Positions 30,090 through 54,577 of a stretch of DNA of 64,000 nucleotides are shown one piece after another; within the stretch, counting starts at the first letter, position 1; each line of letters begins with the position of its first letter. The notes beneath the pieces were generated by a model that ran no database searches, was not told the origin of the DNA, and saw only the letters and a list, made by a program, of their open reading frames with translations. Position numbers and translations under genes: made by a program. Origin of the DNA: Pirellulaceae bacterium (GTDB lineage: Bacteria; Planctomycetota; Planctomycetia; Pirellulales; Pirellulaceae); the NCBI GenBank assembly GCA_035512595.1, contig DATKDU010000207.1:4889-68888 (forward strand), in the 5' to 3' direction.

Positions 30090-30875
30090 ATGAAATGGAA
30101 CATTCTGGTTGGATCGTTGGTACTAAGCGCTTGCGCTTGTACCCAGAGTTATGGTTTTGAGCTGCTGGACCGCATGCTCGGTGTCAGTGGCTGCGGCTGC
30201 GAAAGCAGTTGCTGCGAATCGAAAGGCTGCCGGTCGCGTTGCGTGCGCGTAAAGTGCTGCAACTCGTCCTGTGGCAATGGCTGTGCGAAAGCCGCGCCGA
30301 GCTGTGCAGCTCCGACGTGTGCCGCCCCAGCCCCCACGTGTGCGGCTCCCGCCCCCACCTGTGCCGCGAAGGCCCCGACCTGCGCCGCTGATCCTAGCTG
30401 CGAAGCGAAGGCCGGCTGCAACAACGGCTGCCGCGACCGCTGCAAGCGTGGTTGCCTGCTCGATCGGCTCTTCTCGTGCAACAAGCGCTGCCACAACGGT
30501 TGCGGCAATGGTTGTGCGAAGGCCGCCCCGAGCTGTGCCGCGAAGGCCCCGACCTGCGCCGCGGCTCCTAGCTGCGGAGCCAAGGCCGCTTGCCACAACG
30601 GCTGCCGTGACCGCTGCCATCGCGGTTGCCTGCTTGATCGGCTCTTCTCGTGCAACAAGCGCTGCAACAACGGTTGCAGCAACGGTTGTGCGAAGGCCGC
30701 TCCGACCTGTGCCGCTCCGGCCCCGGCTTGCGGCTGCGACGCTGCGGCTCCCGGCAAGGCGCACGCCGCTGGTGGGGACATTGCCCCGATGCCGCCGGCC
30801 CCGGTGGTCGATCCCTCGGCCTACCTGTCCGCTCAACGTCGGGTCGTTCCGGCCTCGGCGACCTTGGTCCGCTAA
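30090..30875 (+). CDS. secreted cysteine-rich tandem-repeat protein
   Basis: ATG 30090 (MKWNILVGSLVLSACA signal peptide). About 40 Cys in 261 aa. Two near-identical 58-aa (174-bp) repeats CxNGCRDRCxRGCLLDRLFSCNKRCxNGCxNGCAKAAP(S/T)CAA plus a degenerate first copy. Confidence 0.75.
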   Translation: MKWNILVGSLVLSACACTQSYGFELLDRMLGVSGCGCESSCCESKGCRSRCVRVKCCNSSCGNGCAKAAPSCAAPTCAAPAPTCAAPAPTCAAKAPTCAADPSCEAKAGCNNGCRDRCKRGCLLDRLFSCNKRCHNGCGNGCAKAAPSCAAKAPTCAAAPSCGAKAACHNGCRDRCHRGCLLDRLFSCNKRCNNGCSNGCAKAAPTCAAPAPACGCDAAAPGKAHAAGGDIAPMPPAPVVDPSAYLSAQRRVVPASATLVR

Positions 30876-34138: not shown

Positions 34139-34160
34139 AAAAACGGTATGTACCGTTTTT
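34139..34160. terminator. bidirectional A5-stem-T5 terminator hairpin
   Basis: aaaaacggta-tg-taccgttttt, 80 bp after the GGDEF-EAL stop. Confidence 0.7.
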
Positions 34161-34233
34161 CTTGCCGGGAAAACGCCGCACTGCCCAACGTGAGCAGGTA
34201 ATCTAACTCGTGACTTCAGCTTGAGTTCCAACC

Positions 34234-34279
34234 AGAGCGACGGACGGGGCTCGAACCCGCGACATCCAGCTTGGGAAGC
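34234..34279 (-). repeat. att repeat: partial copy (3' half, anticodon loop to discriminator) of tRNA-Gly(CCC)
   Basis: agagcgacggacggggctcgaacccgcgacatccagcttgggaagc matches 54503-54548 at 44 of 46 positions. The 5' half of the tRNA is absent here. Confidence 0.9.
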
Positions 34280-34498
34280 AATGAGCAGGATGCCGCAAGT
34301 GAGAACCTGCCCGAACTTACGACGAGCAAATCGGCAGCTTGTACCAACGCTTGTACCGGCGAGGCGAAAAACGCCGAATTGGTGGCACCCGATCCGCAAG
34401 TGACGTTGATCATCGAGCGGTGGCCGCAGCTCACGCTCGCTGCCCGCCAAGCGGTGATGCAGATCGTGCTCGCCAACGCGCCGCACGGGGACGTCTGA
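34271..34498 (+). other. orphan ORF in the integrase reading frame across the att repeat (possible detached integrase 3' end)
   Basis: Begins TTG GGA AGC inside the att copy, the same codon phase as TTG GGA AGC TAG at the integrase end (54540-54551). Encodes ...ELVAPDPQVTLIIERWPQLTLAARQAVMQIVLANAPHGDV. Confidence 0.4.
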
Positions 34499-34722
34499 TG
34501 CCCACCGTCCGACATGGGCCAAATCCTGCTGGTGGTGTCCCAGCGACGATGACCGATCAGGATCCGGCCTTTCCACACTGGCGGCAAGCTGCGCCGTCCC
34601 TTCGCGGTCCAGCACAGCGGCAGAGGAACCTCCAGTGGCCAGCGTCGATTCGTTGTGGTTTTATCGTCGTCTGCTCGACCAGCCTGTTGGCGAGCCCCAA
34701 CTACCTCAGCGGGAAAGGACGA

Positions 34723-35151
34723 ATGATGGAACTGACAACCAGAGAACAAGCTACCGCCGTGCGGCTCGGAGAAGCATTGGCACAATTCCTCGTGGCGCTG
34801 GAAGAAGGTGCGGCCGCCCGCCAGGCGAAGCGACTGCTGAAGGACTCGCCCCCTTCGAGGGACCGCTCGACTACCAGCGAGCCGCAAAGCGGGAAGGAGC
34901 CGCCGGCGATGAAGGCGACGCCGACGACGATTCCAATTCAGCCGACAATCGGGATAGGCAGGGCGGAGCCCGAGCGGTTGCTCGTTGGCAGCCGAGAAGC
35001 AGCAAAGCTTCTTTCGATCAGCACTCGCTGCTTATGGGGGATGACCGCGCCCCGCGGTCCGCTACCGGCCGTCTACATGGGCAGGAGGGTCTTGTACGCC
35101 GTCGCCGACCTTGCCGCGGCCGTCGAGAAGCTGACGAAACGACAACGATAA
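34723..35151 (+). CDS. excisionase/MerR-like HTH DNA-binding protein
   Basis: C-terminal LLVGSREAAKLLSISTRCLWGMTAPRGPLPAVYMGRRVLYAVADLAAAV resembles excisionase-family HTH. Start is uncertain (ATG 34723 with RBS; alternative 34498). Confidence 0.6.
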   Translation: MMELTTREQATAVRLGEALAQFLVALEEGAAARQAKRLLKDSPPSRDRSTTSEPQSGKEPPAMKATPTTIPIQPTIGIGRAEPERLLVGSREAAKLLSISTRCLWGMTAPRGPLPAVYMGRRVLYAVADLAAAVEKLTKRQR

Positions 35152-36961: not shown

Positions 36962-37747
36962 CTACGGCATTGGCGCGATTACAACCTTTACGCAGAAACC
37001 ATCGGTTGTCCTCGAAAGGTCCGCCTCCAGGCCCGCTGGATTCGCAATGCGGTTTTCGGGGTCGTACACGAAACAGATTAGGTACTTGCAGCCAGGGTGT
37101 CTTTGATACTTGGCGATATCCAAAATCAGTTCTTCCCCGATCTTCCTTGCGTCCAGTCCTTTTCGCGTCTTTTTCAATTCAACGACGATCTGTGAATCCT
37201 TGAGCAGAAAGTCCATCCGTGCGGAACCACCCGCATAGCTTGGCGTCCATTCCTCGGCACGAATGTCGTCGAAGAACAACCTCAAGAGCGAGTGCATTAG
37301 GTCCTGCACGTCGTATTCATCAGTAATGTCGAGCGTGGGACGATCGGCGTGTCGCGCACGAAGCTGTCGAACCACGGCATGAAAGCGATTGCAAATCTGC
37401 TCGACAATCGCCACGGATTCCTCAAGATCGGCCTCCGCGTGGCGAACCTCAGGCATTCCAAACTGTTCGATCTCCCAAATAAACGAGCGAAGAACTTTTT
37501 TAGACTTGTCAACTCCCGCCTTGAAAGCTTGGATCTCTGGATTAGGATCACCGAGTCGGCAGATGCCGTAAAACTGAAAATCGACCGTCATTAAGTCCTG
37601 GGAATGGTGGGAGTCTTCCCCGAAGATCTGATCGAGGACTGTGCGGCACTTTCGTCGCCAGGCATCGACATTCGTCGGCTTCCGCTTTACGGCATCGGCC
37701 TCTTCGATCAAGCCTTTGATCAGGGTAGTTGCGGCGGCTGCATCCAC
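36962..37747 (-). CDS. PD-(D/E)XK nuclease-fold protein
   Basis: 261 aa. C-terminal half YDVQDLMHSLLRLFFDDIRAEEWTPSYAGGSARMDFLLKDSQIVVELKKTRKG fits a D...(D/E)xK core (D in MDF, ELK). Helical N-terminal half. AT-richer than its surroundings by eye. Confidence 0.7.
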   Translation of the reverse strand: MDAAAATTLIKGLIEEADAVKRKPTNVDAWRRKCRTVLDQIFGEDSHHSQDLMTVDFQFYGICRLGDPNPEIQAFKAGVDKSKKVLRSFIWEIEQFGMPEVRHAEADLEESVAIVEQICNRFHAVVRQLRARHADRPTLDITDEYDVQDLMHSLLRLFFDDIRAEEWTPSYAGGSARMDFLLKDSQIVVELKKTRKGLDARKIGEELILDIAKYQRHPGCKYLICFVYDPENRIANPAGLEADLSRTTDGFCVKVVIAPMP

Positions 37748-37787
37748 GGAGGTGGTTACTCCCTTCCCATCCAGAACCCGGTCATCG

Positions 37788-39278
37788 TCATTTACCTAGC
37801 TTCCCCGCAATCGCCTGAAACTGCTCTAGCGCCGTCTCCAGGTCGTCGGCAATCTCTGCCGCCAGAACGTCGGGCTCGGGCAGATCCTCGGAGTCCTCCA
37901 GGCTCTTGTCCCTGAGCCAGAAGATGTCCAGGTTCACCTTGTCCCGCTTGATCAGCTCTTCGTAGTCGAACTGCCGCCAGCGCCCCTCCGGGTTCTTGTC
38001 CGCGTCCCACTTGGCTTTCCGCTGGTGGCGCTTGCCGGGCCGGTAGCACTCAACGAACTCGTCCAGGTCGGCTCTGCTCATCGGGTTCGTCTTCTGGGTG
38101 AAGTGCATGTTGGTCCGCAGGTCGTAGACCCACAGCTTGCTCGTCCACGGCTTCTCCTGCGCCGGCTTGGCGTCGAAGAACAGGACGTTGGCCTTCACCC
38201 CCTGGGCGTAGAAGATGCCGGTCGGCAGCCGCAACAGCGTATGCACGTCGCACTGCGTCAGAAGGTTGCGGCGGACCGTCTCGCCGGCCCCTCCCTCGAA
38301 CAGCACGTTGTCCGGCACGACGATCGCGCAGCGGCCGTTGATCTTCAGCAGCGTCTTGACGTGCTGCACGAAGTTGAGCTGCTTGTTCTTGGTCGCGGTC
38401 CAGAAATCCTGCCGCTCGTAGGCGTGCTCCTCTTTTTCCAGGTCCCCCTCCTCGTTGACGATGGCGATGCTGCTCTTCTTGCCGAACGGCGGATTGGTGA
38501 CCACGACGCTGAACCGCTCCCCCGGATCGCCGGCCAGGCTGTCCACCCCCGACTTGATCGGGCACGGGTCGGCGTCGATGCCATGCAGGTACAGGTTCAT
38601 GATGCAGAGGCGGGCCGTGTTGGGGACCAGCTCCCATCCCTTCACGAACTTCGTCCGCAGGTGCTTCTTCTGGTCCTTGTCCAGTTCCTTGCCGAAGTGG
38701 GACACGACGTAGCTGTATGCCGCCAGTAGAAAGCCGCCGGTCCCCGCCGCCGGATCGCAGACCGTGTCCCCCGGCCCCGGCTGCACGCAATCGACGATCG
38801 CCTTGATCAGCTCCCGCGGCGTGAAATACTGCCCGGCCCCTTTAGGGGACTCCTCGGCACTCTTGGCCAGCAGCCCCTCGTAGATGTCCCCCTTCACGTC
38901 GGCATCCATGCTCGACCACTTGACCGGCTCGATCAGATCCACGATCAACCGCCGCAGCGTCGCCGGGTTCTGGATGTCCATCCGCGCCTTCTTGAAGATT
39001 TCGCCGAGCATCCCCGGCTGCTTCCCCAGTTCCTCCAGGCAGTGGCGGTAGTGGACTTCCAGCTCGTCCCCCTCGAGCTTGAGGAGCGCCTCCCACGAGT
39101 ATTTTTTGGGGACGATGGGGGGCCGGTTGTACGGGGCCTTGGTCAGCTCGTCGGCCATCTTCAGGAAGAGCAGGAAGGTGATCTGCTCGGTGTAGCCCAT
39201 GTACGACAGCCCGTCGTCGCGCAGGACGTGCGCGAAGTTCCAGGCTTTGGAGACGATTTGCTGGGAGAGGTTGCTCAT
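37788..39278 (-). CDS. hsdM: type I restriction-modification N6-adenine DNA methyltransferase subunit
   Basis: 496 aa. HsdM N-terminal domain, DPAAGTGGFL (motif I) and VVTNPPFG (motif IV). Confidence 0.95.
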   Translation of the reverse strand: MSNLSQQIVSKAWNFAHVLRDDGLSYMGYTEQITFLLFLKMADELTKAPYNRPPIVPKKYSWEALLKLEGDELEVHYRHCLEELGKQPGMLGEIFKKARMDIQNPATLRRLIVDLIEPVKWSSMDADVKGDIYEGLLAKSAEESPKGAGQYFTPRELIKAIVDCVQPGPGDTVCDPAAGTGGFLLAAYSYVVSHFGKELDKDQKKHLRTKFVKGWELVPNTARLCIMNLYLHGIDADPCPIKSGVDSLAGDPGERFSVVVTNPPFGKKSSIAIVNEEGDLEKEEHAYERQDFWTATKNKQLNFVQHVKTLLKINGRCAIVVPDNVLFEGGAGETVRRNLLTQCDVHTLLRLPTGIFYAQGVKANVLFFDAKPAQEKPWTSKLWVYDLRTNMHFTQKTNPMSRADLDEFVECYRPGKRHQRKAKWDADKNPEGRWRQFDYEELIKRDKVNLDIFWLRDKSLEDSEDLPEPDVLAAEIADDLETALEQFQAIAGKLGK

Positions 39279-39305
39279 TTTGTCTTTCGATGCATGGAGT
39301 GCGGC

Positions 39306-40817
39306 TTAGGCCCCCCCGACAAGTCCGAGCCCCGGCGCGAACATTGGATGCACGGCGAACCAGCGAGTGGCGGTTAACTCAACAGGATTGCTTGGATCGT
39401 AGGGAACCGCTTCGTCCGTTCTGCTCAACTTCACCCATAGAATGCCGCATTCAAGCAAGAGGCGGGCGAAAGCGCAGGGATCCTCGGAATAACCTCTTGC
39501 CCACGCATACCGATCTGCGCCGGGCTCATTCAAATCGACCTCCAGGGCTATGATTTCAAGGATGTTTTTCAAAGTGCCTAGTGGGAACTCCTTTTGACCT
39601 CCATTCATCTTTTTCACAATCCGCTCTAGGCCGGGATACTTGTACTCGAATTCGCCCGTAATCTCCTTGAGACGCTCGATCGAAAAGTCGCGGATGGCAG
39701 TTTCCATATCATGCTGTGTTATCTGCTTGTGTCCGTTGGTGTCTGCCGTGACCGCCGCGACTGTAGCCAATCGAATGGCTTCCCGCGGACGCCCATTCGA
39801 GTGCTTCCAAATTGCCTTGAAGGCGTCTTCTGGGAAAAGACCTCCCCATATTTCCTTGCGTTGCACCTGAAGTTTGAACAGGATTCTTTCCTCGACGATG
39901 GTACGAACCGAATCGAAGTCCCACCGCACTGGAATTACGACGTCGTGGAGTTTGTCTCGGTCAACGAGCGGCAAGGAGTTGTAGATATTCTCACGTAAGG
40001 CAACGATCGCCTTTAGGCGTGGTGGTCTGCTGAAGTGGCTCAAGCTGGTAAATAGCGATGCCAAGAAGGCGTTCTGCGTGGGAGTGTCGTTCCAGTAAAG
40101 ATCGAGATCGTCGATCAAGAGGTAATAGGAGTGCTTCACGTTATCGCGAAGTTTTCGCGCCACCGAATTCACCAGCGAAAGCAGATGGAGCGGCTCACCT
40201 GATTTCGCGTTCTCTTTATCCAGCACGGCCTTTCCCGTGATTTTTGCTCCGGCGTACTCGCCTGAAAGTTCGACTTCCTTTACTAGCTGAAGAATGCGGA
40301 CTGTCAGCGATGTTTCTTCGCCCTGGCTCATTGAGATGAGCTTTCTGGCTTCCTTTTCGAATTGGCCCCGAAAGATGTTAGTGAACCATCCGCTTAGTTC
40401 TGATGCGTTCGGAAACTCTCTTCTCAGGACCTCCATTGCGAGGACATAGTCCCAAAGGGCCTTGAAGAGCCACTGGTTCTTAGCCGACTCTGCGATGATG
40501 GGTGACGTTGCTTCCACGTTCGCGAGCGCCGAGAATGCGAGGTCGTCGGGACGGATGCTGATCACCCTGCATTCGCTTCCCGCCTTTGTAAGCTGCACCA
40601 TCTTCAGGATTGCCGATTTGCCCATGCCCTTTGGGCCGACAAAGAACGTAGCCGGGTCCTCGATGTCGATCGCGCGTCGCAAGTAGCGCTGTTCCGAAAC
40701 GTAATACTGGGCGAGATGTTCATCGTTCTCAGCAACAAGCCGCCCAAAATCGAGCGTGTCGTCTTCGGCGTTGAGCTTTAGGAGATTTCGTTCGCGGTCT
40801 TTGTTCTTCTTAGTCAT
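39306..40817 (-). CDS. P-loop NTPase of unassigned family embedded in the R-M operon
   Basis: 503 aa. Walker A GPKGMGKS (res 61-68) and Walker B YYLLIDDLD (res 231-239), about 165 residues apart. Helical C-terminal region. Visibly AT-richer. Confidence 0.85.
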   Translation of the reverse strand: MTKKNKDRERNLLKLNAEDDTLDFGRLVAENDEHLAQYYVSEQRYLRRAIDIEDPATFFVGPKGMGKSAILKMVQLTKAGSECRVISIRPDDLAFSALANVEATSPIIAESAKNQWLFKALWDYVLAMEVLRREFPNASELSGWFTNIFRGQFEKEARKLISMSQGEETSLTVRILQLVKEVELSGEYAGAKITGKAVLDKENAKSGEPLHLLSLVNSVARKLRDNVKHSYYLLIDDLDLYWNDTPTQNAFLASLFTSLSHFSRPPRLKAIVALRENIYNSLPLVDRDKLHDVVIPVRWDFDSVRTIVEERILFKLQVQRKEIWGGLFPEDAFKAIWKHSNGRPREAIRLATVAAVTADTNGHKQITQHDMETAIRDFSIERLKEITGEFEYKYPGLERIVKKMNGGQKEFPLGTLKNILEIIALEVDLNEPGADRYAWARGYSEDPCAFARLLLECGILWVKLSRTDEAVPYDPSNPVELTATRWFAVHPMFAPGLGLVGGA

Positions 40818-40875
40818 CGTGACTGCTCGTCGTAGTTAAGAAACTCGTCCGCGAAGCGACAGGAACTCCCAAGGA

Positions 40876-42444
40876 TTACCCAGCCGTTCGCGCAGCGGGA
40901 TTGGTTCGATTACGACCGGCCTTCGACCGGCCAGCAGCGCTCGCCCCATTCCTCTCGTCTCCCAAACCTAACCGTATTCGCTCCAGCAGCACGCTGGCCG
41001 GTTCGTCGTGGGGGTCTTGGGGGACGAGTTTCCCCTCGAAGGCCCGCTTGAGGATGCTCTGGCGGAGACGGGCGGCGCGGTGCAGTCCGTGGTCGATGGC
41101 AGTATCGGCCGCCTCGATCTGGGAGAGCCGCTCATCGAGTTGGGCGACGATTTCTCGCTGTTCGGAGGGGGGCGGAACTGAAACCGGGAACCGACGCAGA
41201 ATGCCGAGGTTGATCGAGGCCAGATTCGTTGTCTGCTTGCCAGCTTTAGTGAACCATTCCTGTCCAAACGTATTGCCGTGGTGCGAAACGAACCGGGATT
41301 GCATTTGCTTTGAGACCAGCCGGGCGCGGAAAATGTGGTTTTGGTGAATACACTCCAAGATTTCGCCTTCCCAAACCCACCCGCGACCGAGCTTATCCCG
41401 GTCGCCGCCTTCAGTGAAAAGGACGTCGCCAACTTCAAGTCGCAAGTCAACAATGTCCTCCTCGGGGGCAAAGATGTTTTTCATCTCGGAGAGGTCGAGA
41501 AACCCTCGCTGCACATTGGCGACTCGCAAATATGGAACTTCCCGCATCCCAGGTTGGTTGGACCGCTTTTGATCTTTTGTGATGCCGCCGACTAGATTGG
41601 CCAGCGCTTCAAGGGTCGCCCAGCACCAGCCCTTGGGCAGCTCGGGCAGGTTGGTCGTATCCGGCGACGCGGGCTCGACGTACTTGGCCCGCCAGTTCGT
41701 GGGGGGCGGTTTGCCGGCGGCGGCGAACTTGGCGAGTTGATCGGCTTCCCACTTGCGGCGGCGTTCGGCCAGGATCCGCTCCAGCAGCTTCGAGGCGGGC
41801 TCCACGTCCTTGTGCTTGGCCCGCCAGGCCGCGGTCAGCTTCCCCTTGACGGCCGCATTCAGGACGGCCGCCCGGTAACGCTTCAAGTTCGCCTTGGCCC
41901 GCTCCAGTGCCGCCACGCCCGCATCCAGGTCGGAGAACAGTTCCTCGATCTTCTCGACGATCCGGCGCTGCTCGCTGAGCGGAGGTACGGGGAACTCCAC
42001 TCGTGACAGTGCCTTTCCGGTCAAGTGCTTGATGGTCGTCCCCGTGTAATGCGGCGCGAAACGGTTGGTGATCGTCCCGTAGTAGAGGTAGTACATCGCA
42101 AACGAGGGGTCATATTCCTCGGGGCGAAAACGAATCCGATGGAGCGCCTTTTGGATTTTGGCGGATGCCGCTTGACCCTTCCAAACGGCTGCCCGACCGG
42201 GTTCGCCCCCTTCGCAAATCACAAGGTCGCCCGGCTGAAGGCCGAACCGCGATTCCTCGTCGGCCTCGAATCGCATTTCTTTCATGTCGCTAAGATCGAA
42301 TGTAAACCACCGCACGTTGACGTTACGCAGGTAGGGTTGCAGTGAGCCGCGATTCTTCTGCTTGTCGAGCATCTTCCCGAGACACATTTCGGCAGCAACC
42401 AAGGTCAGGGGCAACGCTGGCCACGGAAATCCATTTGCACTCAT
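40876..42444 (-). CDS. hsdS: type I R-M specificity subunit
   Basis: 522 aa. Two target-recognition halves separated by conserved helices (PPLSEQRRIVEKIEELFSDLDAGVAALERAKANLKRYRAAVL; PPPSEQREIVAQLDERLSQIEAA). ATGA overlap with hsdR. Confidence 0.9.
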   Translation of the reverse strand: MSANGFPWPALPLTLVAAEMCLGKMLDKQKNRGSLQPYLRNVNVRWFTFDLSDMKEMRFEADEESRFGLQPGDLVICEGGEPGRAAVWKGQAASAKIQKALHRIRFRPEEYDPSFAMYYLYYGTITNRFAPHYTGTTIKHLTGKALSRVEFPVPPLSEQRRIVEKIEELFSDLDAGVAALERAKANLKRYRAAVLNAAVKGKLTAAWRAKHKDVEPASKLLERILAERRRKWEADQLAKFAAAGKPPPTNWRAKYVEPASPDTTNLPELPKGWCWATLEALANLVGGITKDQKRSNQPGMREVPYLRVANVQRGFLDLSEMKNIFAPEEDIVDLRLEVGDVLFTEGGDRDKLGRGWVWEGEILECIHQNHIFRARLVSKQMQSRFVSHHGNTFGQEWFTKAGKQTTNLASINLGILRRFPVSVPPPSEQREIVAQLDERLSQIEAADTAIDHGLHRAARLRQSILKRAFEGKLVPQDPHDEPASVLLERIRLGLGDERNGASAAGRSKAGRNRTNPAARTAG

Positions 42445-45194
42445 GCCGCCAGCCTCCCATTCAGCTCCGCCAGGAGTGCCGGCAGCGCTTCGCCGAACAG
42501 TTCAAACGCCTTCCCCAGCCCGCCGATCTGGTTGAACGGCACTTCGTCGAGATCTTCCTTCTCGATCGTCAGGCTCGTGGCGACGTGGTCCTTGATCGCA
42601 TCCAGCCAGCGCCGCTGGTCGGGGGTGAACTTGCGGCCCGCGGCCGTCTGCTCGGCCAGCCACGCCTCATACCGCTCGTGGACCGTCTGCCCCATCGGCA
42701 CCAGCGGCGTCGCCGGGTCGAGTGCGTGCCGCACCAGGGCGATCAGGTCCACGATCTTATTGCCGCCGTCCGCCTTCACCTTGGCCGGCGCCACCGCCTT
42801 GTACGCCTGCCACAGCCGCAGCGGATCGAACCGATGCGGCGGCTGGGCCAACTCCTTGGCCAGTTCTTTCACCTGCGCGTACCGCAGCCCGGCCCGATAC
42901 GGCCTGCTGTAGAGGAGCTGGAGCGCCTCGATCTCATCCTTGTGCTCCTCGATGAACTGCCGAAAGCTGGTCACCAGGGCCTGCGCCTTCTCCTTGGAAG
43001 CCGCATCGAACCCCGCCTTGAGCAGCTTGTCCCGCGTCTGCTCGTCGATCACCTGCTCCAGCGACTGTTTCGCCTTCAGCACCTTGTCCCGCAGGACCGG
43101 ATTGTGGAACGGCTTCAGCGCCTGCCGCATCCGCTCGTGCTCGATCGTATCGAGCTGCTGCTCGCTCGGTTCCGTGCCGGCGGGCAGGGTGAATTTCGTC
43201 TTCGCCTGGGCGGCGACCGTGTCCGGGTCGATGCTCGCCAGCAGATCCCGGCTGAGCGTGGCCAGGTCCTTGCCGCCAGCCGCAGCCGTAAGTTCGGCCT
43301 CCGCGTCGGGCTCGATCTCCCGCTCCAGCCGGGCCAGCCGTGACGCCAGGGTAGAAACAATGTCGGCACTGGCGGCTCCCGCCCCGACCAGATTGAGAAT
43401 CTTGTCCAGCGGCACGCTGGGCTGCCGGTCGAGCGGTTTGGTGGCCGACTTCTCGCTTTCGCAGACGCCGATAGCATCCACGATCACGAAATGATCCTTG
43501 TGCCGGGCGTCGGGGGTCACGCTTTGCAGCGCGTCGCCATCGATCACCCGGCAGCCGCGCCCCTTCATCTGCTCGAAGTACGACAGCGAGCGGATATTCC
43601 GCAGAAAGAGCAGGCACTCCAGCGGTTTGACGTCGGTCCCCGTGGCGATCATATCCACCGTCACGGCGATCCGCGGATTGAATGCCGTGCGGAACTGCGC
43701 CAGCAAGTCGTCCGGCTTGTGCGCTTTGGCCGTGATCTTCTGGCAGAAGTCGTTCCCCTTGCCGAACTCTTCCCGCAGGATGCGGACCACGTCCTCGGCA
43801 TGCAGGTCGGTCTTGGCGAAGACCAGCGTCTTGGGGACTTCGGTCCGCCTCGGAAAAATCTCAGGCAGCTTGTCCCGGAACGTGCGGACGACCAGTCGAA
43901 TCTGGTCCTCGGCGACCACGTCCCGGTCGAGCTGATTGGCCGTATAGGTCAGGTCGTCGTCCAGCTCCCGGTACTTTTTCTGCTTGGTGCGCCGGTCGCG
44001 GTGGGGGACGAAGATGCCCGGCTCCTTGGCCAGCTTCGCCCCGCTGGCGCTGATTTGCGTCTCGATCCGGTACACGTCGTAGCCGACATTGACGCCGTCG
44101 GCGACTGCTTTCTCGTGCGTGTATTCCTGCACCAGGTTCTGATTGAAAAAGCCGATCGTCTGCGCCGTCGGCGTGGCGGTCAGGCCGATCAGGAAGCCGT
44201 CAAAATACTCCAGCACCTGCCGCCACAGGTTGTAGATCGACCGATGGCATTCATCGACCACGATGAAGTCGAACGTCTCGATGGGGATGCGCGGGTTATA
44301 GGCGACCGGCAGCGGTTCCTTGACCAGCGGCGTCTCGGTCTCGAACAGTGAGCTTTCCTCGTTCTCCTCCAGGTACTCGTCTTCGCCTTGGAGCATCGAG
44401 TACAGCCGCTGGATCGTGGTGATGCAGACCTTCGACGCGGCATCGATCGTGTTCCGCTTCAGGTGCTGGACCGTGTACTCCTCGGTGAACTTGTAACCGC
44501 TGGGGCCAATAAACTGCTGAAACTCGTTCAGCGTCTGCTTTCCCAGGTTGTTGCGGTCCACCAGGAACAGAATCCGCTTCGCTTTTGCGTGCTTGATCAG
44601 CCGGTAGCAGAAGTTGACGGCGGTGAAGGTCTTGCCGCTGCCCGTGGCCATCTGGATCAGCGACCGCGGCCGATTGTCCGCCAGAGACCGCTCCAGGTTA
44701 ATGATCGCTTCCTGCTGCACGCGCCACAGTCGCCCCTCTTCAAGCGGCGGCATCCCCCTCAGCAGCGACCGAACCTGATCGTCGAGCTGCACGAGCCGAA
44801 TCAATTCCTCTGGCCGGTGGAACGTGAAGACCGGCCGGCTGCGGGCGTCCGGTTCCAGGATGCTCGTGAACTGCGTCTCCGTGCCGGTCGATTCGTAGGC
44901 GAATGGCAGCGGCAGGCGGTAATTGGGCAGGCCCCGCGGCAGTCCTTTGACGTACTTATCCGACTGCGGCTCAATCCCTTTGAGCGTGTGCCCTTCCGGC
45001 TTGGCCTCGACGACGCCGATCGCCCGCCCGTCCGCATAAAGCAGATAGTCCGCTTCGCCGCTGGTGAGGGGAAATTCCCGCACGGCGATGCCATTGCCGG
45101 CCGAAAGGTCGATCTGGCGATAGTCCTGCACCTGCCAGCCGCATTCGGTCAGCTGCCGGTCGATGTTTTGTCGGGCTCGTTCTTCGGGGGTCAT
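42441..45194 (-). CDS. hsdR: type I restriction enzyme R subunit (EcoEI-type C-terminal region)
   Basis: MATGSGKTFTAV (motif I), VVDECHRS (II), LTATP (III), QMKGRGCR (VI). Start set at MTPEERARQNIDRQLTECGW (ATG 45194) rather than track start 45503. Confidence 0.93.
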   Translation of the reverse strand: MTPEERARQNIDRQLTECGWQVQDYRQIDLSAGNGIAVREFPLTSGEADYLLYADGRAIGVVEAKPEGHTLKGIEPQSDKYVKGLPRGLPNYRLPLPFAYESTGTETQFTSILEPDARSRPVFTFHRPEELIRLVQLDDQVRSLLRGMPPLEEGRLWRVQQEAIINLERSLADNRPRSLIQMATGSGKTFTAVNFCYRLIKHAKAKRILFLVDRNNLGKQTLNEFQQFIGPSGYKFTEEYTVQHLKRNTIDAASKVCITTIQRLYSMLQGEDEYLEENEESSLFETETPLVKEPLPVAYNPRIPIETFDFIVVDECHRSIYNLWRQVLEYFDGFLIGLTATPTAQTIGFFNQNLVQEYTHEKAVADGVNVGYDVYRIETQISASGAKLAKEPGIFVPHRDRRTKQKKYRELDDDLTYTANQLDRDVVAEDQIRLVVRTFRDKLPEIFPRRTEVPKTLVFAKTDLHAEDVVRILREEFGKGNDFCQKITAKAHKPDDLLAQFRTAFNPRIAVTVDMIATGTDVKPLECLLFLRNIRSLSYFEQMKGRGCRVIDGDALQSVTPDARHKDHFVIVDAIGVCESEKSATKPLDRQPSVPLDKILNLVGAGAASADIVSTLASRLARLEREIEPDAEAELTAAAGGKDLATLSRDLLASIDPDTVAAQAKTKFTLPAGTEPSEQQLDTIEHERMRQALKPFHNPVLRDKVLKAKQSLEQVIDEQTRDKLLKAGFDAASKEKAQALVTSFRQFIEEHKDEIEALQLLYSRPYRAGLRYAQVKELAKELAQPPHRFDPLRLWQAYKAVAPAKVKADGGNKIVDLIALVRHALDPATPLVPMGQTVHERYEAWLAEQTAAGRKFTPDQRRWLDAIKDHVATSLTIEKEDLDEVPFNQIGGLGKAFELFGEALPALLAELNGRLAA

Positions 45195-45818
45195 GCGGTC
45201 GTCCGGCAACTGCCTGCCGACGAGGAGAGCCAGCGACCCCACGAAAACCGCCGCGCCCGCCCATTGCCAGCCAGAGACAGAAAGTGACAAGGCGACGCCC
45301 ATTGTGGAGTCACCCGCCGCGGGATGCAAGCACTTTTCTGCCAGGACCGGGGCCAATATCGCGGGGGGCGCAACAAAAACGGCCCTCCGGTGGGGCAGGA
45401 ACCGGAAGGCCGCGATGCGTAGCCGCAAGCGGCCAGCACTCGACACAATATTCGTCGCCCGAGTCAATTGAAGCGCGGGAATGCCGGCATTTGTTCGCGG
45501 CATTCGGCCGCAGTAAGATGGACCTCACCCACGCACGGGTGAGTGTGAATCCAAACTCGATTTGAGGACCAACCTAGCGCAATAACGAACCAGAGCACAA
45601 GCGTGTAGTGAAGTTTCTGCTTCCCAGTAAACAGCCAACCTGAGCCGCAAGGCTCTTGATCTACAGAAGCAGTGCTTGCGCCACGCTCCCGCAAGGGAGC
45701 GTCGGCCAGGTGCTGTTCTGTAGGCCCCTTGGCTGGGGTACTGGGAGCGGCCCTGCGTTCGGCGCTCCTTTTTTCGTCGGCTGATCGAATGGCGGTCAGC
45801 AGCGGGAGATTCCTGACG

Positions 45819-50906: not shown

Positions 50907-52316
50907 GTGCCTCCAAAGAGTGCAATGCGTAGTGTAACTACGGCCGCCGCCGCTTCGCAATCGTCGGCGGCTGTTTTGATTCCAACTCCGCAACGGTCGT
51001 TACTCGACGCTGCCCGCGGTTATCGGCGGTGGGGCTGGTCGGTGATTCCCACGCGGGCCGACAATTACAAAGAGTCGTTGGTGCCATGGACGAAGTACCA
51101 GCAGGAATCGGCGCCAATCCGGGACATCGAGAAATGGTTTGCCAGCGACGCGACTGGTGGGGTCGCCGTGATACTCGGGCCTGCTTCAGGCGGGTTGGCA
51201 TGCCGCGATTTCGACGACCCTGCTGCCTACCAGTCGTGGCAGAGCAAAAACACAGATCTGTCGAGCCGGCTCCCTACGGTCAAGACGCGACGCGGCTACC
51301 ACGTGTACTTTCGGGTAGCGCCCGATGCGATGTTCAATCTACGCAGCGGGCTAAAGAAGTGGGGAGTTGGCGCTATCGTGCTCGGCGACGGTGAACTGCG
51401 TGCGGATCATGGGTGCTATACGGTATTGCCGCCGACGCCGTTTCCGGACGGTCGGTACACATGGTTGATTCCTGCGACAGGAAGTCCGTCGCAAGTTGAT
51501 CTATTCACGTCGGGATTACTTCCCCCAAAGGTGGTAGACCAAGTTCTTTTGAAAGTTGACACAGAGGACACAGACGACGCAGGACTACCCAGAAGACTCA
51601 AGCCATTGGTGGAGCCCTGTCTGACTGCGAGAAATGAATCACCAAACCACCATCACCACCATCTGCCGGCCCCCTCGCGCGCGGCCCCTGACGGATTCCC
51701 GAAGCAGCAACAATCCAACCCCAAGGGGTCGCCTCACTGGACACGCGACGGACAAGGGACGCTCAAGCAGGAGATTGACCAGATCATCGCTCGCACGATC
51801 CCGACTTCTGAGCACACGCGGAATCGCCAGCTCTTTTTGCTGGCCCGTGAGTTGAAGTCGCTGCCACAGTATTGCATGGCGTCTCCTGAAGGCATGGAAG
51901 GCGTTGTGCGGGAGTGGCATCAACGTGCGCTGCCCGCAATCGCGACGAAAAGTTGGCTGGTGACTTGGACGGAGTTCAAGCAAGCCTGGAAAAAGGTGAA
52001 GCATCTCAAGGGACGGGAGCCGCTGCGGATGATGTTCTCTCAGGCTATGCAACGGGATCTGCCTAAATGTGCAGAGCGGTTCGCCGACGATCCGCAGGCG
52101 CAGTGGCTGATTGCCCTTTGCCGCGAACTCCAGGAGGCGGCGCCTGGCAAGCCCTTTTATTTGTCCTGCCGCGCCGCCGGAGAACTGGTAAAGCTCAGTC
52201 ATACCGCGGCGAACACACTGATTTGCGGACTGGTCGAGGAGGAAATCCTCAAGCTGGTCAAAAAGGGAGATCATCGAGCGCGACAGGCCAGCGAGTTTCG
52301 GTACCTCGGGGATTGA
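50907..52316 (+). CDS. bifunctional DNA primase/polymerase (PrimPol N-terminal domain) protein
   Basis: LLDAARGYRRWGWSVIPT...KESLVPWTKYQQESAP...IEKWF...GVAVILGPASGGLACRDFDD pattern. Start at GTG 50907 or ATG 50925. Confidence 0.8.
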   Translation: MPPKSAMRSVTTAAAASQSSAAVLIPTPQRSLLDAARGYRRWGWSVIPTRADNYKESLVPWTKYQQESAPIRDIEKWFASDATGGVAVILGPASGGLACRDFDDPAAYQSWQSKNTDLSSRLPTVKTRRGYHVYFRVAPDAMFNLRSGLKKWGVGAIVLGDGELRADHGCYTVLPPTPFPDGRYTWLIPATGSPSQVDLFTSGLLPPKVVDQVLLKVDTEDTDDAGLPRRLKPLVEPCLTARNESPNHHHHHLPAPSRAAPDGFPKQQQSNPKGSPHWTRDGQGTLKQEIDQIIARTIPTSEHTRNRQLFLLARELKSLPQYCMASPEGMEGVVREWHQRALPAIATKSWLVTWTEFKQAWKKVKHLKGREPLRMMFSQAMQRDLPKCAERFADDPQAQWLIALCRELQEAAPGKPFYLSCRAAGELVKLSHTAANTLICGLVEEEILKLVKKGDHRARQASEFRYLGD

Positions 52317-52366: not shown

Positions 52367-52729
52367 ATGAGCAAGCATCCTTTGATGACTGACGTGTTGC
52401 GGAAAACAATCAATAAAAGCGGCGAGTACTTCTTGACGCTGGAACAGGCGACCGGAATCAAGCGGCAGTCGCTCATGAAATTCGCCCGTGGCGAGCAGTC
52501 GCTGCGGCTGGACATGGCTGACAAGCTGGCGGAGTTTTTTGGGTTGGTACTCACGGAAGATTCCCGCCGGCCCGCCAAAGGGAGCAAGCAGTTGCAGCAA
52601 GCAGCGAGGACCAGGAAGCTGCGGAGTCTCGCTGAACTGGCCAAGCAGGGGCTGGAGGCCGTGAAGGTCAAGGATTTCGGCACGGTGAAAAAGATCCTCA
52701 ACAAGATTCAGAGGCTGGGGGACGTCTAG
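52367..52729 (+). CDS. XRE/Cro-like HTH regulator
   Basis: 120 aa. YFLTLEQATGIKRQSLMKFARGEQSLRLDMADKLAEFFGL is an HTH_XRE-like pattern. Confidence 0.65.
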   Translation: MSKHPLMTDVLRKTINKSGEYFLTLEQATGIKRQSLMKFARGEQSLRLDMADKLAEFFGLVLTEDSRRPAKGSKQLQQAARTRKLRSLAELAKQGLEAVKVKDFGTVKKILNKIQRLGDV

Positions 52730-52763: not shown

Positions 52764-54551
52764 ATGGCTAGTGTATACCGCGAAACGTTCACTAAACCGC
52801 TGCCGGCTGGCGCCGAGACCATTGTCCGCAAGGGGGAGCGATTGGCTCGGTGGAAGGACGCCAAGGGGAAGGTGAGGACCTCGCCCGTTACGACCGGCAA
52901 GGACGGTACCGAGCGGATTGTGGTCATGGCGGCGACGTACACGGCGAAGTACCGCGACGCCAACCACAATTTGTGCAAGGTCTCGACTGGTTGCCGTGAC
53001 GAAACGAATGCGCGCCAGGTGCTGGCCGAGCTGCTCAAACGTGTCGAGCGGGTCAAGGCATTGATGCTGACGCCGGCGGAAGACGCCATGATTGATCACC
53101 GGAAGCGACCGTTGGCGGAGCACATTTCGGCCTACCTGACCTACTTGGAGTCGTGCAACGCCTCGCCAGTCCATCGGGAGAACGTCGAGCGCTGCCTGAC
53201 GGTCCTGGCTGCCGACTGCAAGTTCGAGAATCTGTCGGACTTCCGACGGGAGTCTCTGGAAATCTGGCTCGTCCAGCAATCGAAGGTGCGGAAGAGCCCC
53301 GAAGGGAAGGAGATTTGGACCAAGAGCGCTCGGACGCGCAATTCTTACCGGGCAGCCATCGTCGCCTTCTGCAACTGGTGCGTGGCCACCGAACGGTTGC
53401 TGGCCAACCCGTTCACACGGGTAGCCAAGGCTGACGAAAAGTCCGATCCACGGCGGCACCGGCGGGCGCTGACCGAGGAGGAGCTCGGGCGGCTGCTTGT
53501 AGTGGCGAGGATGAGGCCGCTGGCTGAGTGCGGCCGCGACACGGTCAAGCGGCAGGAGCCCGACGCCGACGAAGGGAAGCGGGGCGGCTGGACCTATGCC
53601 CCGCTCAATTACAAAGACCTGGAGTCGGCAACGGCCAAGGCGCGGGAGCGGCTCGCCAAGCACCCGCTCAAGATCGCGGAGCTGGAGGCGGTTGGCCAGG
53701 AGCGGGCCATGATCTACAAGACGCTGGTGCTGACCGGCCTGCGGAAGGGAGAGCTGGCGTCGCTGACTGTGGGGCAATTGCACCTTGACGGCCCGCGACC
53801 TTACGCCGAACTTGATGCCGCCGACGAGAAGAACCGCCAGGGCTCACAGATTCCGCTACGGCGCGATTTGGCGGACGAACTTGCTTTGTGGGTTGAGGAG
53901 AAGCGAAATCGCCTCCAAAGTAGTCCAGGAGCGTCTGAGGGGCATATTTGTCTGCCGATGACTGCAGCGACCATCCTGCCAGCCGATACTCCCCTGTTCG
54001 ACGTGCCGGACGGGCTAATCCGGATTCTCGATCGCGACCTGAAGGCCGCCGGGATTCCCAAAAAGGACCAGCGGGGAAAGACGGTCGATGTTCACGCCCT
54101 GCGGCACAGCTTCGGCACGCTGCTGTCGAAGGGGGGCGTGGCGCCGCGGACCGCACAGGCGGCGATGCGGCACTCGTCGATCGACCTGACCATGAACACG
54201 TACACCGATCCGAAGCTCTTGGACGTGCATGGTGCCCTCGACGCGCTCCCGCAACTCCCTCTTTCGGCGGATCCTTCTGCACGCGCAATCGATGCAAAGG
54301 CAACTGGCACCGACGACTTCGGTCCCTCGCCGCTTGTACCAACGCTTGTACCAGCGGCTGACAATCGCGGTGATTTGCTGCCATTTGCTGCCCCATCGGC
54401 AAGCGGAGCTATGAGCAGCGAACGTCGCCAGAGCCGCGACGTAAGTGGTTGCGGTGACAAAAGAAAAAACCCGCTGCCACATTCAGACAGCGGGTGTCAT
54501 CGAGAGCGACGGACGGGATTCGAACCCGCGACATCCAGCTTGGGAAGCTAG
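52764..54551 (+). CDS. tyrosine site-specific integrase
   Basis: VHALRHSFGTLL and AMRHSSIDLTMNTYTD (H-x-x-R ... Y catalytic set). A long Ala/Pro/Ser-rich tail reads antisense through the tRNA (RTGFEPATSSLGS) and stops immediately after the att repeat. Confidence 0.9.
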   Translation: MASVYRETFTKPLPAGAETIVRKGERLARWKDAKGKVRTSPVTTGKDGTERIVVMAATYTAKYRDANHNLCKVSTGCRDETNARQVLAELLKRVERVKALMLTPAEDAMIDHRKRPLAEHISAYLTYLESCNASPVHRENVERCLTVLAADCKFENLSDFRRESLEIWLVQQSKVRKSPEGKEIWTKSARTRNSYRAAIVAFCNWCVATERLLANPFTRVAKADEKSDPRRHRRALTEEELGRLLVVARMRPLAECGRDTVKRQEPDADEGKRGGWTYAPLNYKDLESATAKARERLAKHPLKIAELEAVGQERAMIYKTLVLTGLRKGELASLTVGQLHLDGPRPYAELDAADEKNRQGSQIPLRRDLADELALWVEEKRNRLQSSPGASEGHICLPMTAATILPADTPLFDVPDGLIRILDRDLKAAGIPKKDQRGKTVDVHALRHSFGTLLSKGGVAPRTAQAAMRHSSIDLTMNTYTDPKLLDVHGALDALPQLPLSADPSARAIDAKATGTDDFGPSPLVPTLVPAADNRGDLLPFAAPSASGAMSSERRQSRDVSGCGDKRKNPLPHSDSGCHRERRTGFEPATSSLGS

Positions 54552-54577
54552 TGCTCTACCAACTGAGCTACCGTCGC
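54505..54577 (-). tRNA. tRNA-Gly (anticodon CCC)
   Basis: Hand-folded GCGACGG-TA-GCTC-AGTTGGTA-GAGC-A-CTAGC-TTCCCAA-GCTGG-ATGTC-GCGGG-TTCGAAT-CCCGT-CCGTCGC-T. Perfect acceptor stem, discriminator U, CCA not encoded. Confidence 0.9.

Follow-up and report, generated by a model that had tools for sequence, protein, structure and literature searches.

In Myxococcus phage Mx8, the phage attachment site (attP) lies in the 3′ part of the integrase gene, int, and integration into a tRNA gene changes the C-terminus of the integrase (Int), giving the gene a new 3′ end without inactivating it (PMC6070905); the Islander paper is a further source for the Mx8-type arrangement of int and attP (PMC4383910). 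The archaeal SSV-type, or "suicidal", integrases (SSV1, pTN3 and pT26-2) also have attP inside int, and the gene is partitioned on integration; these systems unite recombinase, site and a form of directionality control in a compact "all-in-one" module, and a review states that self-disrupting recombinases are exclusive to archaea (PMC8371274). In mycobacteriophage BPs, the gene that contains attP is the repressor gene, integration shortens the protein, and the phage and prophage forms behave differently (PMC4557955). Here we describe a locus from a Pirellulaceae bacterium (Planctomycetota; GenBank assembly GCA_035512595.1, contig DATKDU010000207.1), contained in a stretch of 64,000 nucleotides, hereafter the window, to which the coordinates refer. 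In this window, a ~20-kb integrative element sits in the 3′ half of a tRNA-Gly(CCC) gene and carries a complete attP within its own int. Our interpretation, which we regard as very probable, is that int is split by its own attP, and that a conserved C-terminal tail, cut off on integration and restored by excision, serves the enzyme of the circular form. Integrases that extend across their own attP, those of Mx8 in bacteria and of the SSV type in archaea, have usually been treated as curiosities.

The only tRNA gene found in the window by ARAGORN was that of tRNA-Gly(CCC), on the minus strand (54504-54577). A repeat search of the window detected a 51-nt direct repeat (92% identity) with copies at 34229-34279 and 54498-54548. 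The right copy, which adjoins int and the intact tRNA gene, is the 3′ half of this gene and the left copy is a displaced fragment of it, thereby indicating that the ~20.2 kb in between (34280-54503) is an integrated element whose target was the tRNA gene. The 3′ half of the tRNA gene (54504-54548) is read in antisense by int as ...RTGFEPATSSLGS. Two mismatches distinguish the copies, GGGGCTCG on the left and GGGATTCG on the right. The attP of a related contig (L001, described below) has the GGGATTCG version, which is thus of the element type; together, these observations place the crossover within 34250-34279, a segment that takes in the anticodon-loop part of the tRNA.

In the integrated state, int (52764-54551, plus strand) encodes 595 amino acids (aa). 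Its ATG at 52764 agrees with homologues beginning MGTVY..., and its end reads ...TTG GGA AGC TAG, the TAG (54549-54551) being the first triplet past the 51-nt repeat; this stop codon is supplied by the tRNA gene. At the left end of the element, TTG GGA AGC (34271-34279) stands in the int frame and is followed by 72 open codons up to a TGA (34496-34498). Being in frame with the core and homologous to the contiguous tails described below, this stretch (34280-34498, plus strand) is designated the orphaned 3′ end of int, or tail. The reconstructed fusion of int and tail is a protein of 667 aa, in whose open reading frame (ORF) the att core comprises codons 581-595 and the catalytic Tyr is codon 480. 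The first-pass annotation of the window had claimed the stop directly after the repeat, the continuation in the same phase at the other end and the two resulting proteins (667 aa from attP and 595 aa when integrated); all were borne out, the last by reconstruction from the ATG at 52764. The int product matched Pfam Phage_integrase (PF00589, E = 4.9e-13), and R327, H444, R447, H470 and Y480 (window numbering) were invariant across 72 aligned sequences; by these catalytic residues, it belongs to the tyrosine recombinase/phage integrase superfamily. The att core is preceded by every catalytic residue and by all three folded domains, all of which the 595-aa form retains. An A-T-G-T(-D-D) motif (54300-54317; Int residues 513-516), located ~35 residues past the catalytic Tyr and just before the P-arm repeats described below, was nearly invariant in the 72 sequences.

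A search with the reconstructed 667-aa protein yielded thousands of relatives, and the few that carried a source name came from Pirellulales or other Planctomycetota. Of the best 120 homologues, most were 560-600 aa long, with 89% query coverage. Since this coverage equals 595/667, most homologues end where the integrated copy in the window ends, that is, at the tRNA-antisense segment, because they are integrated copies. Their C-termini corresponded to antisense peptides of several tRNAs (...GFEPATSSLGS, ...RESNPQPPDRQSGTLTN, ...VEPSTSALRTQRSPN and ...GLEPVTPSLSSWCSNQLS). For 112 top homologues with a recognisable catalytic Tyr motif, we counted the distance from this Tyr to the T-arm-antisense peptide, as matched by a permissive regular expression: the peptide was found 72-119 residues past the Tyr in 102 proteins (97-119 residues in all but one), and at exactly 104 residues in 58 of these 102. 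Read-through of the tRNA-derived core, with a fixed geometry and with several tRNAs, is thus a rule of the family. The first-pass annotation had proposed to look for homologous integrases in which the tail is contiguous, and seven such proteins with a tail similar to that of the window were found (P0003, P0016, P0022, P0023, P0026, P0054 and P0074). In each of the seven tails, a terminal helical motif comes after an ACTxxCT(S/G)E block; P0054, for example, ends in ...DLALIIERWPRLPADVRRRVLRAVQTRKE, compared with ...VTLIIERWPQLTLAARQAVMQIVLAN... in the window. On the contigs of P0003 (L001) and P0054 (L002 and L003), int is flanked on both sides by element genes, which include DnaB_C/AAA_25, HTH_3, HTH_17 and DUF669, and no tRNA gene is present. 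L001 has, in order, the P-arm repeats, the same Gly-tRNA core, the junction GGGAAGC|AAT as in the window and the P′-arm repeats, and L002 has the same layout with a different tRNA core. From this arrangement, L001 and L002 are attP-form molecules, representing a circular or a tandem junction. The terminal motif persists in the contiguous-tail homologues with different tRNA cores.

The attP itself is entirely coding. Five copies of CTTGTACC are present in the window (expected, 0.35), and four of them form two tandem pairs that flank the core. The P-arm pair (54333-54352, plus strand) consists of two direct copies 12 nt apart, lies ~207 nt before the TTG of the core and reads L-V-P-T-L-V-P in the int ORF; the P′-arm pair (34338-34357, plus strand) has the same 12-nt spacing, lies 59 nt past the core and reads A-C-T-N-A-C-T in the tail frame. 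We regard these as putative arm-type integrase binding sites. The pairs were enriched relative to shuffled sequences and their position was conserved in relatives: TTGYACC pairs occur at equal spacing in L001 and L002, the 59-nt distance of the P′-arm is shared by L001, the P-arm reads xAPxxAP in relatives, and each of the 13 other aligned tails contains an ACTxxCT block in register. The fifth copy (30136-30143) is isolated, lies outside the island and is probably due to chance. In a terminator scan, the tRNA gene proved to have an intrinsic terminator at 54459-54495 on the minus strand (stem 54495-54469, followed by the T-run TTTTTTCTTTT), which the element supplies. This terminator lies between the P-arm and the core, antisense within the int ORF, and is translated by Int as ...DKRKNPLPHSDSG...; a terminator-derived peptide, KRKxPL, recurs among homologues. 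Because int and the tRNA-Gly(CCC) gene are convergent and overlap, transcription of either may interfere with the other. The complete attP spans ~295 bp (P-arm, terminator, 45-nt tRNA-derived core and P′-arm), all of it coding and 3′ of the catalytic Tyr codon. Between the core and the P′-arm, a conserved DNA block, (A)AA-GNA-CTT-ACG and variants, was observed at 34307-34327 and in L001 and L004-L017; it has no codon periodicity and may be a further protein-binding site of attP, for a recombination directionality factor or a host bending protein.

AlphaFold2 was run on the natural attP-form protein P0003 and on the fused protein of the window. In both models, a confident body, composed of an N-terminal beta domain, a helical core-binding domain and a catalytic domain, was followed by an att-encoded region with a predicted local distance difference test score (pLDDT) <50 (residues 504-616 in P0003 and ~524-628 in the window protein) and then by two terminal helices with pLDDT 81-91. 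The helices of the window fusion were predicted at residues 634-641 and 648-661 (pLDDT ~82-85), in keeping with the earlier suggestion that the tail ends in a helical structure. On the basis of these helices, the motif, the codon-position entropy and the ratio of nonsynonymous to synonymous substitution rates (dN/dS), the coding region of the two-helix module (PQVTLIIERWPQLTLAARQAVMQIVLAN) was placed at 34394-34477 on the plus strand. In Foldseek, the body of the P0003 model had its best matches in lambda Int, Brujita Int and Tn1549 Int and also matched XerA and Cre, with a probability of 1.00 for lambda Int, Cre and XerH.

Orphaned tails were then sought with a pattern in which the arm repeat TTGYACCNNNGNTTGYAC comes 50-70 nt after the core, in one representative genome per species, the JGI metagenomes and IMG/VR. 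The pattern was found at 58 loci, 14 in genomes and 44 in the JGI metagenomes, and had no match in IMG/VR. Integrase catalytic motifs were present upstream only in L001. At the other loci the open stretch before the core was short, in most cases 11-30 codons of tRNA fragment and flank, so that, where the upstream DNA sufficed to judge, these loci are attL junctions. After removal of duplicates, 48 loci remained, the window included, and the terminal motif (hidden Markov model score >15 bits) was in the integrase frame at 36 of these 48 independent junctions. The first-pass annotation had named, as an outcome that would contradict it, homologues ending uniformly at the tRNA segment with no similarity to the tail; the seven contiguous tails and the 36 in-frame junctions show otherwise. 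The distance from the arm block to the motif differs by 0-55 residues among the tails, indicating that the frame has been kept through many insertions and deletions. The helix block had codon-position entropies of 1.25, 0.97 and 1.43 at positions 1, 2 and 3, a coding signature, compared with 0.40, 0.64 and 0.67 in the uniformly conserved arm-repeat block and 1.2, 1.21 and 1.05, with no periodicity, in the spacer before it. In the conserved Leu and Arg columns of the tail, synonymous codons differ. Pairwise NG86 dN/dS over the post-arm codons was mostly 0.2-0.6, about 0.4, and <1 in nearly all pairs (0.36, 0.58 and 0.44 for the closest tail pairs), the pairs having been picked at an amino acid identity of at least 50%, a choice that biases dN downward. 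As judged from these comparisons, the tail behaves as coding sequence kept in frame under purifying selection.

An independent replicate was provided by L063 (GCA_973789385.1), in which a 10.3-kb island lies between two copies of the window-type core. Its Int (P0005, 560 aa) ends in LGS* in tRNA-Gly(CCC), and the far junction carries an in-frame tail of 86 residues ending in ...LSSIVDAWPRLPAAVRSAVAALVKAATGPEV. The direct repeat of L063 (1296-1349 and 11627-11680) reaches upstream past the tRNA 3′ end (TGTACAAGAAAGCGGGCGAAG...) and is thus longer than the tRNA-derived part, which explains why some attL flanks look like the P-arm of the element. From 32 tails, a gap-free motif was obtained, D-x-(D/P)-L-x-x-(L/V/I)-x-x-x-(W/L)-x-x-L-(S/P)-x-x-x-R-x-x-(L/V)-x-x-(M/L/I)-(L/V), which occurs in two flavours, WPxLP and LSPxDRxRL. 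Both flavours were observed in tandem in the 118-residue tail of L018 (...LAAELSKLSQTDRAMLAELL... followed by ...VVVDAWPKLLKAARTGIVTMVKTA...). In L010, a second, diverged tail-like ORF (...ACPQSC...LLETIRLLAKLSPDERAALIGLLKTLG) was observed ~584 nt past the tail stop; related elements may thus have left tandem or nested remnants at a single tRNA gene. A second copy or a partner motif was also looked for in the window, and none was found.

Several points weigh against the interpretation that the tail is a functional part of the circular-form integrase. By chance, 72 codons would stay open in the window with a probability of 0.11 (local base composition) or 0.16 (dinucleotide shuffles), and 36% of all positions and frames in the window (63% GC) are followed by 72 or more open codons. 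The open frame alone is therefore weak evidence, and its significance comes from the comparative data; a chance frame, which the first-pass annotation had itself called plausible, holds up when the window is taken by itself and is rejected solely by the comparison with relatives. Furthermore, the terminal motif was in another frame at 3 of the 48 junctions (L012, L038 and L040), and at 9 of the 48 it was absent or the sequence ended too early. The expression behind the T-arm counts was permissive, the identity cut-off favoured low dN/dS, a profile of the 32 tails gave no significant match to Pfam or PDB sequences, and excision and both protein forms are predictions from sequence. As for the off-frame junctions (L012, from Aeoliella straminimaris, L038 and L040/L060), the integrase frame of L012 stops right after LGS, and these copies are likely decaying and no longer mobile. 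A DNA-binding identity of the tail module was also considered and not adopted; its matches were weak and short, to one helix of the IS629 OrfA helix-turn-helix (E = 0.0015) and to HTH_38 (E = 0.012).

One alternative is that the open frame is a by-product of GC-rich DNA, in which case the tail would be conserved only as DNA, for its arm-type and other attP sites, and its residues would be functionless. Besides the chance values for the window, such an origin is favoured by the arm block and the pre-arm spacer, which have no codon periodicity and are constrained, if at all, as DNA, and by the predicted disorder of the linker. It does not account, however, for a terminal motif that lies beyond the arm sites, past a variable stretch of 0-55 residues, and is nevertheless in the integrase frame at 36 junctions against 3; nor for a helix block whose third codon position is the most variable and whose Leu and Arg codons vary synonymously, for dN/dS <1 in nearly all pairs, or for retention of the motif with different tRNA cores. 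We therefore give this alternative very little weight and retain the reading of the tail as a selected protein segment.

A different possibility is that the tail determines stability, full-length Int being degraded or protected through its C-terminus in the manner of BPs immunity. The precedent is that attP of BPs lies inside the repressor gene (PMC4557955), and here, too, the two forms of the protein differ at the C-terminus only. The extreme C-termini of the tails are not conserved, though (...HGDV, ...KPAG, ...IEG, ...TET and ...ALG), no ssrA-like ending recurred among the tails compared, and the conserved part is the internal two-helix motif, all of which makes this explanation unlikely in comparison with a role of the two-helix module in the circular-form enzyme.

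The first ORF past the tail (34498-35151, plus strand; 217 aa) has a weak C-terminal match to Pfam HTH_17 (Xis/AlpA-like; E = 0.0037, below the curated cut-off). Its ATG (34498-34500) overlaps the TGA of the tail as TGATG, as the first-pass annotation had stated for the window, but the overlap is not conserved: in 18 of 21 relatives with a detectable downstream ORF, this ORF starts 20-584 nt past the tail stop. Translational coupling of the tail to the next gene was accordingly rejected as a general property, the TGATG overlap being specific to this element. A broader version of this idea would be that the tail is expressed alone in the integrated state (as ~40-75 aa), or that read-through mainly carries ribosomes across attP, letting the int promoter drive downstream genes, such as the HTH_17-like ORF, in the circular form only. 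The overlap in the window, the excisionase-type match of the next ORF and an in-frame TTG within the core agree with it. On the other side stand the lack of a conserved in-frame start codon across the 32 tails, the mere 11-30 open codons upstream of the attL core at most loci, the distance of the downstream ORF in the 18 relatives, and a host terminator-like palindrome (34139-34161) upstream of attL. We consider expression of the tail on its own or for downstream genes most improbable, and the tail is treated in what follows as part of full-length Int.

Taken together, the data show the split of int and point to the following course of events. In the circular form, int would encode a 667-aa protein consisting of the three-domain integrase, a disordered linker of ~110-130 residues whose sequence would be dictated by the att DNA elements, and the terminal two-helix module. 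Recombination with attB would cut the ORF at the crossover, leaving a 595-aa protein with all catalytic residues, and the last 72 codons would end up at the far junction, 20 kb off and devoid of upstream coding sequence, until excision rejoined them. The full-length protein is the only route by which selection can reach the tail, so the helical module should act for the enzyme that the circular form makes; most likely, it would help to assemble or regulate the integrative complex, or bind a partner. Loss of the tail on integration would give a resident integrase with altered activity, a built-in sensor of integration state, as has been reported for IntP and IntX of Mx8; we infer that the tail modulates Int activity or stability according to integration state. 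More specifically, the two-helix module could be a dedicated integration-state switch, phylum-wide in Planctomycetota, by which circular-form Int is licensed for integration and resident Int is excision-only or quiet, a proposal that we advance tentatively and consider somewhat doubtful. If it were true, directionality and the control of tandem insertion would be set by gene topology and not by a separate factor, and the system would be a bacterial counterpart of the archaeal "all-in-one" module, with att DNA doubling as a translated flexible linker.

The remaining genes of the element were examined by Pfam scans. On the minus strand (36962-45503), a defence cluster forms a cargo consisting of a protein with a DpnII/MboI-type restriction endonuclease domain and a type I restriction-modification (R-M) set, HsdM, HsdS and HsdR, the last with an EcoEI_R_C domain; the gene for an AAA_16 ATPase sits between hsdM and hsdS. 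The other genes encode a trypsin-TPR protein, a DUF932 protein, a Prim-Pol (50907-52316), an HTH_3 protein and the tyrosine integrase. The small HTH_3 protein is encoded directly 5′ of int (52379-52729) and its C-terminal half weakly matches SAM domains (E = 8e-4, below the cut-off); in L001, an HTH_3 gene is likewise present 5′ of int, with one small ORF in between. No virion genes were recognisable in the island in the Pfam scans. A phage origin of the element was considered and rejected, given this absence and the lack of a match to the core and P′-arm pattern among IMG/VR viral contigs. The element is flanked by ordinary chromosomal genes, encoding a GGDEF-EAL protein and a xylose-isomerase-like TIM barrel protein. 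Between the GGDEF-EAL gene and the left att copy, the perfect palindrome AAAAACGGTA-TG-TACCGTTTTT (34139-34161) has the look of a bidirectional terminator, probably the region in which the host originally terminated transcription past the tRNA gene.

This arrangement means that a gene product depends on the topology of the element that carries it, the module being makeable from the excised form only, and that the same DNA is both recombination-site architecture and translated linker. In genome annotation, int genes of this Planctomycetota family will be called ~70-100 codons short, with the tail overlooked or annotated as a spurious small ORF, and island-finding tools need to accommodate an int that overlaps the tRNA gene. 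Planctomycetes have few genetic tools, and compact int-attP cassettes could become integration vectors. Mx8 has already been turned into integration vectors for myxobacteria.

The closest precedent is Mx8, from which an int-embedded attP is already known. The analogy drawn by the first-pass annotation, to the truncation of mycobacteriophage repressors, held insofar as attP lies in a coding sequence, but IntP/IntX of Mx8 is the nearer case. Mx8 IntP/IntX (and that of Mx9) is, like the integrase described here, a tyrosine integrase with attP embedded in the 3′ coding part of int, past the catalytic Tyr. In the Mx8 genome, int encodes 533 aa with the Tyr near residue 354; ...STGLEPV..., near residue 416, is encoded by the tRNA T-arm-like GGGACTTGAACCCGT, and ~110 more residues follow. 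The integration target of Mx8 is the 3′ part of a tRNA gene, and IntX gains 13 new residues, whereas here the stop follows directly after the crossover. In both systems the core is in int 3′ of the Tyr codon, and integration into the tRNA gene replaces or removes the C-terminus with the catalytic domain intact. The N-terminus of Mx8 Int, MGNVYRK, resembles the MGTVYRK of the Planctomycetota family, but the best BLASTP match of IntP to P0003 had an E of only ~0.03 and was confined to the N-terminal MGxVYRK and catalytic segments. Mx8 was not among the hits (E <= 1e-3) of a tblastn search against 50,697 phage records, which detected weak catalytic-domain matches to streptococcal satellites only. 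Close homology to IntP was rejected on these two results, and since the similarity is marginal, the two represent different families with the same design; the integrase thus resembles Mx8 IntP/IntX in layout and not as a close relative. Mx8 is, moreover, a tailed phage, whereas the present element lacks recognisable virion genes and has a cargo of Prim-Pol and R-M genes; the terminal two-helix motif was not seen in the Mx8 tail by reading its sequence alone; and the layout is documented here across a whole family with several tRNA targets. What is new, then, is that this layout is the rule for a large Planctomycetota family that uses several tRNA targets, that arm sites and tRNA terminator are fully embedded in the ORF, and that a conserved terminal helical module is present.

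Other systems differ more. With the lambda-type heterobivalent integrases, the present integrase shares a three-domain architecture, including a predicted beta-rich N-terminal domain (residues 3-74, pLDDT >90), and direct repeats on both arms, here the tandem CTTGTACC pairs on either side of the core, their binding by the N-terminal domain being putative. The attP of lambda is intergenic, however, whereas translation of the present integrase runs through the arm-type repeats, the core and even the tRNA terminator. In BPs, integration removes a C-terminal ssrA-like degradation tag from the repressor; here int is cut instead, and the tails have no conserved tag-like terminus, setting this family apart from the BPs type. 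The archaeal SSV-type integrases are split such that the N-terminal part is separated from the catalytic part, leaving two inactive pseudogenes. In the present family, unlike the SSV type, the catalytic residues stay together and the C-terminal appendage alone is removed, and this bacterial family, like Mx8, is thus a milder counterpart of the archaeal self-disrupting integrases.

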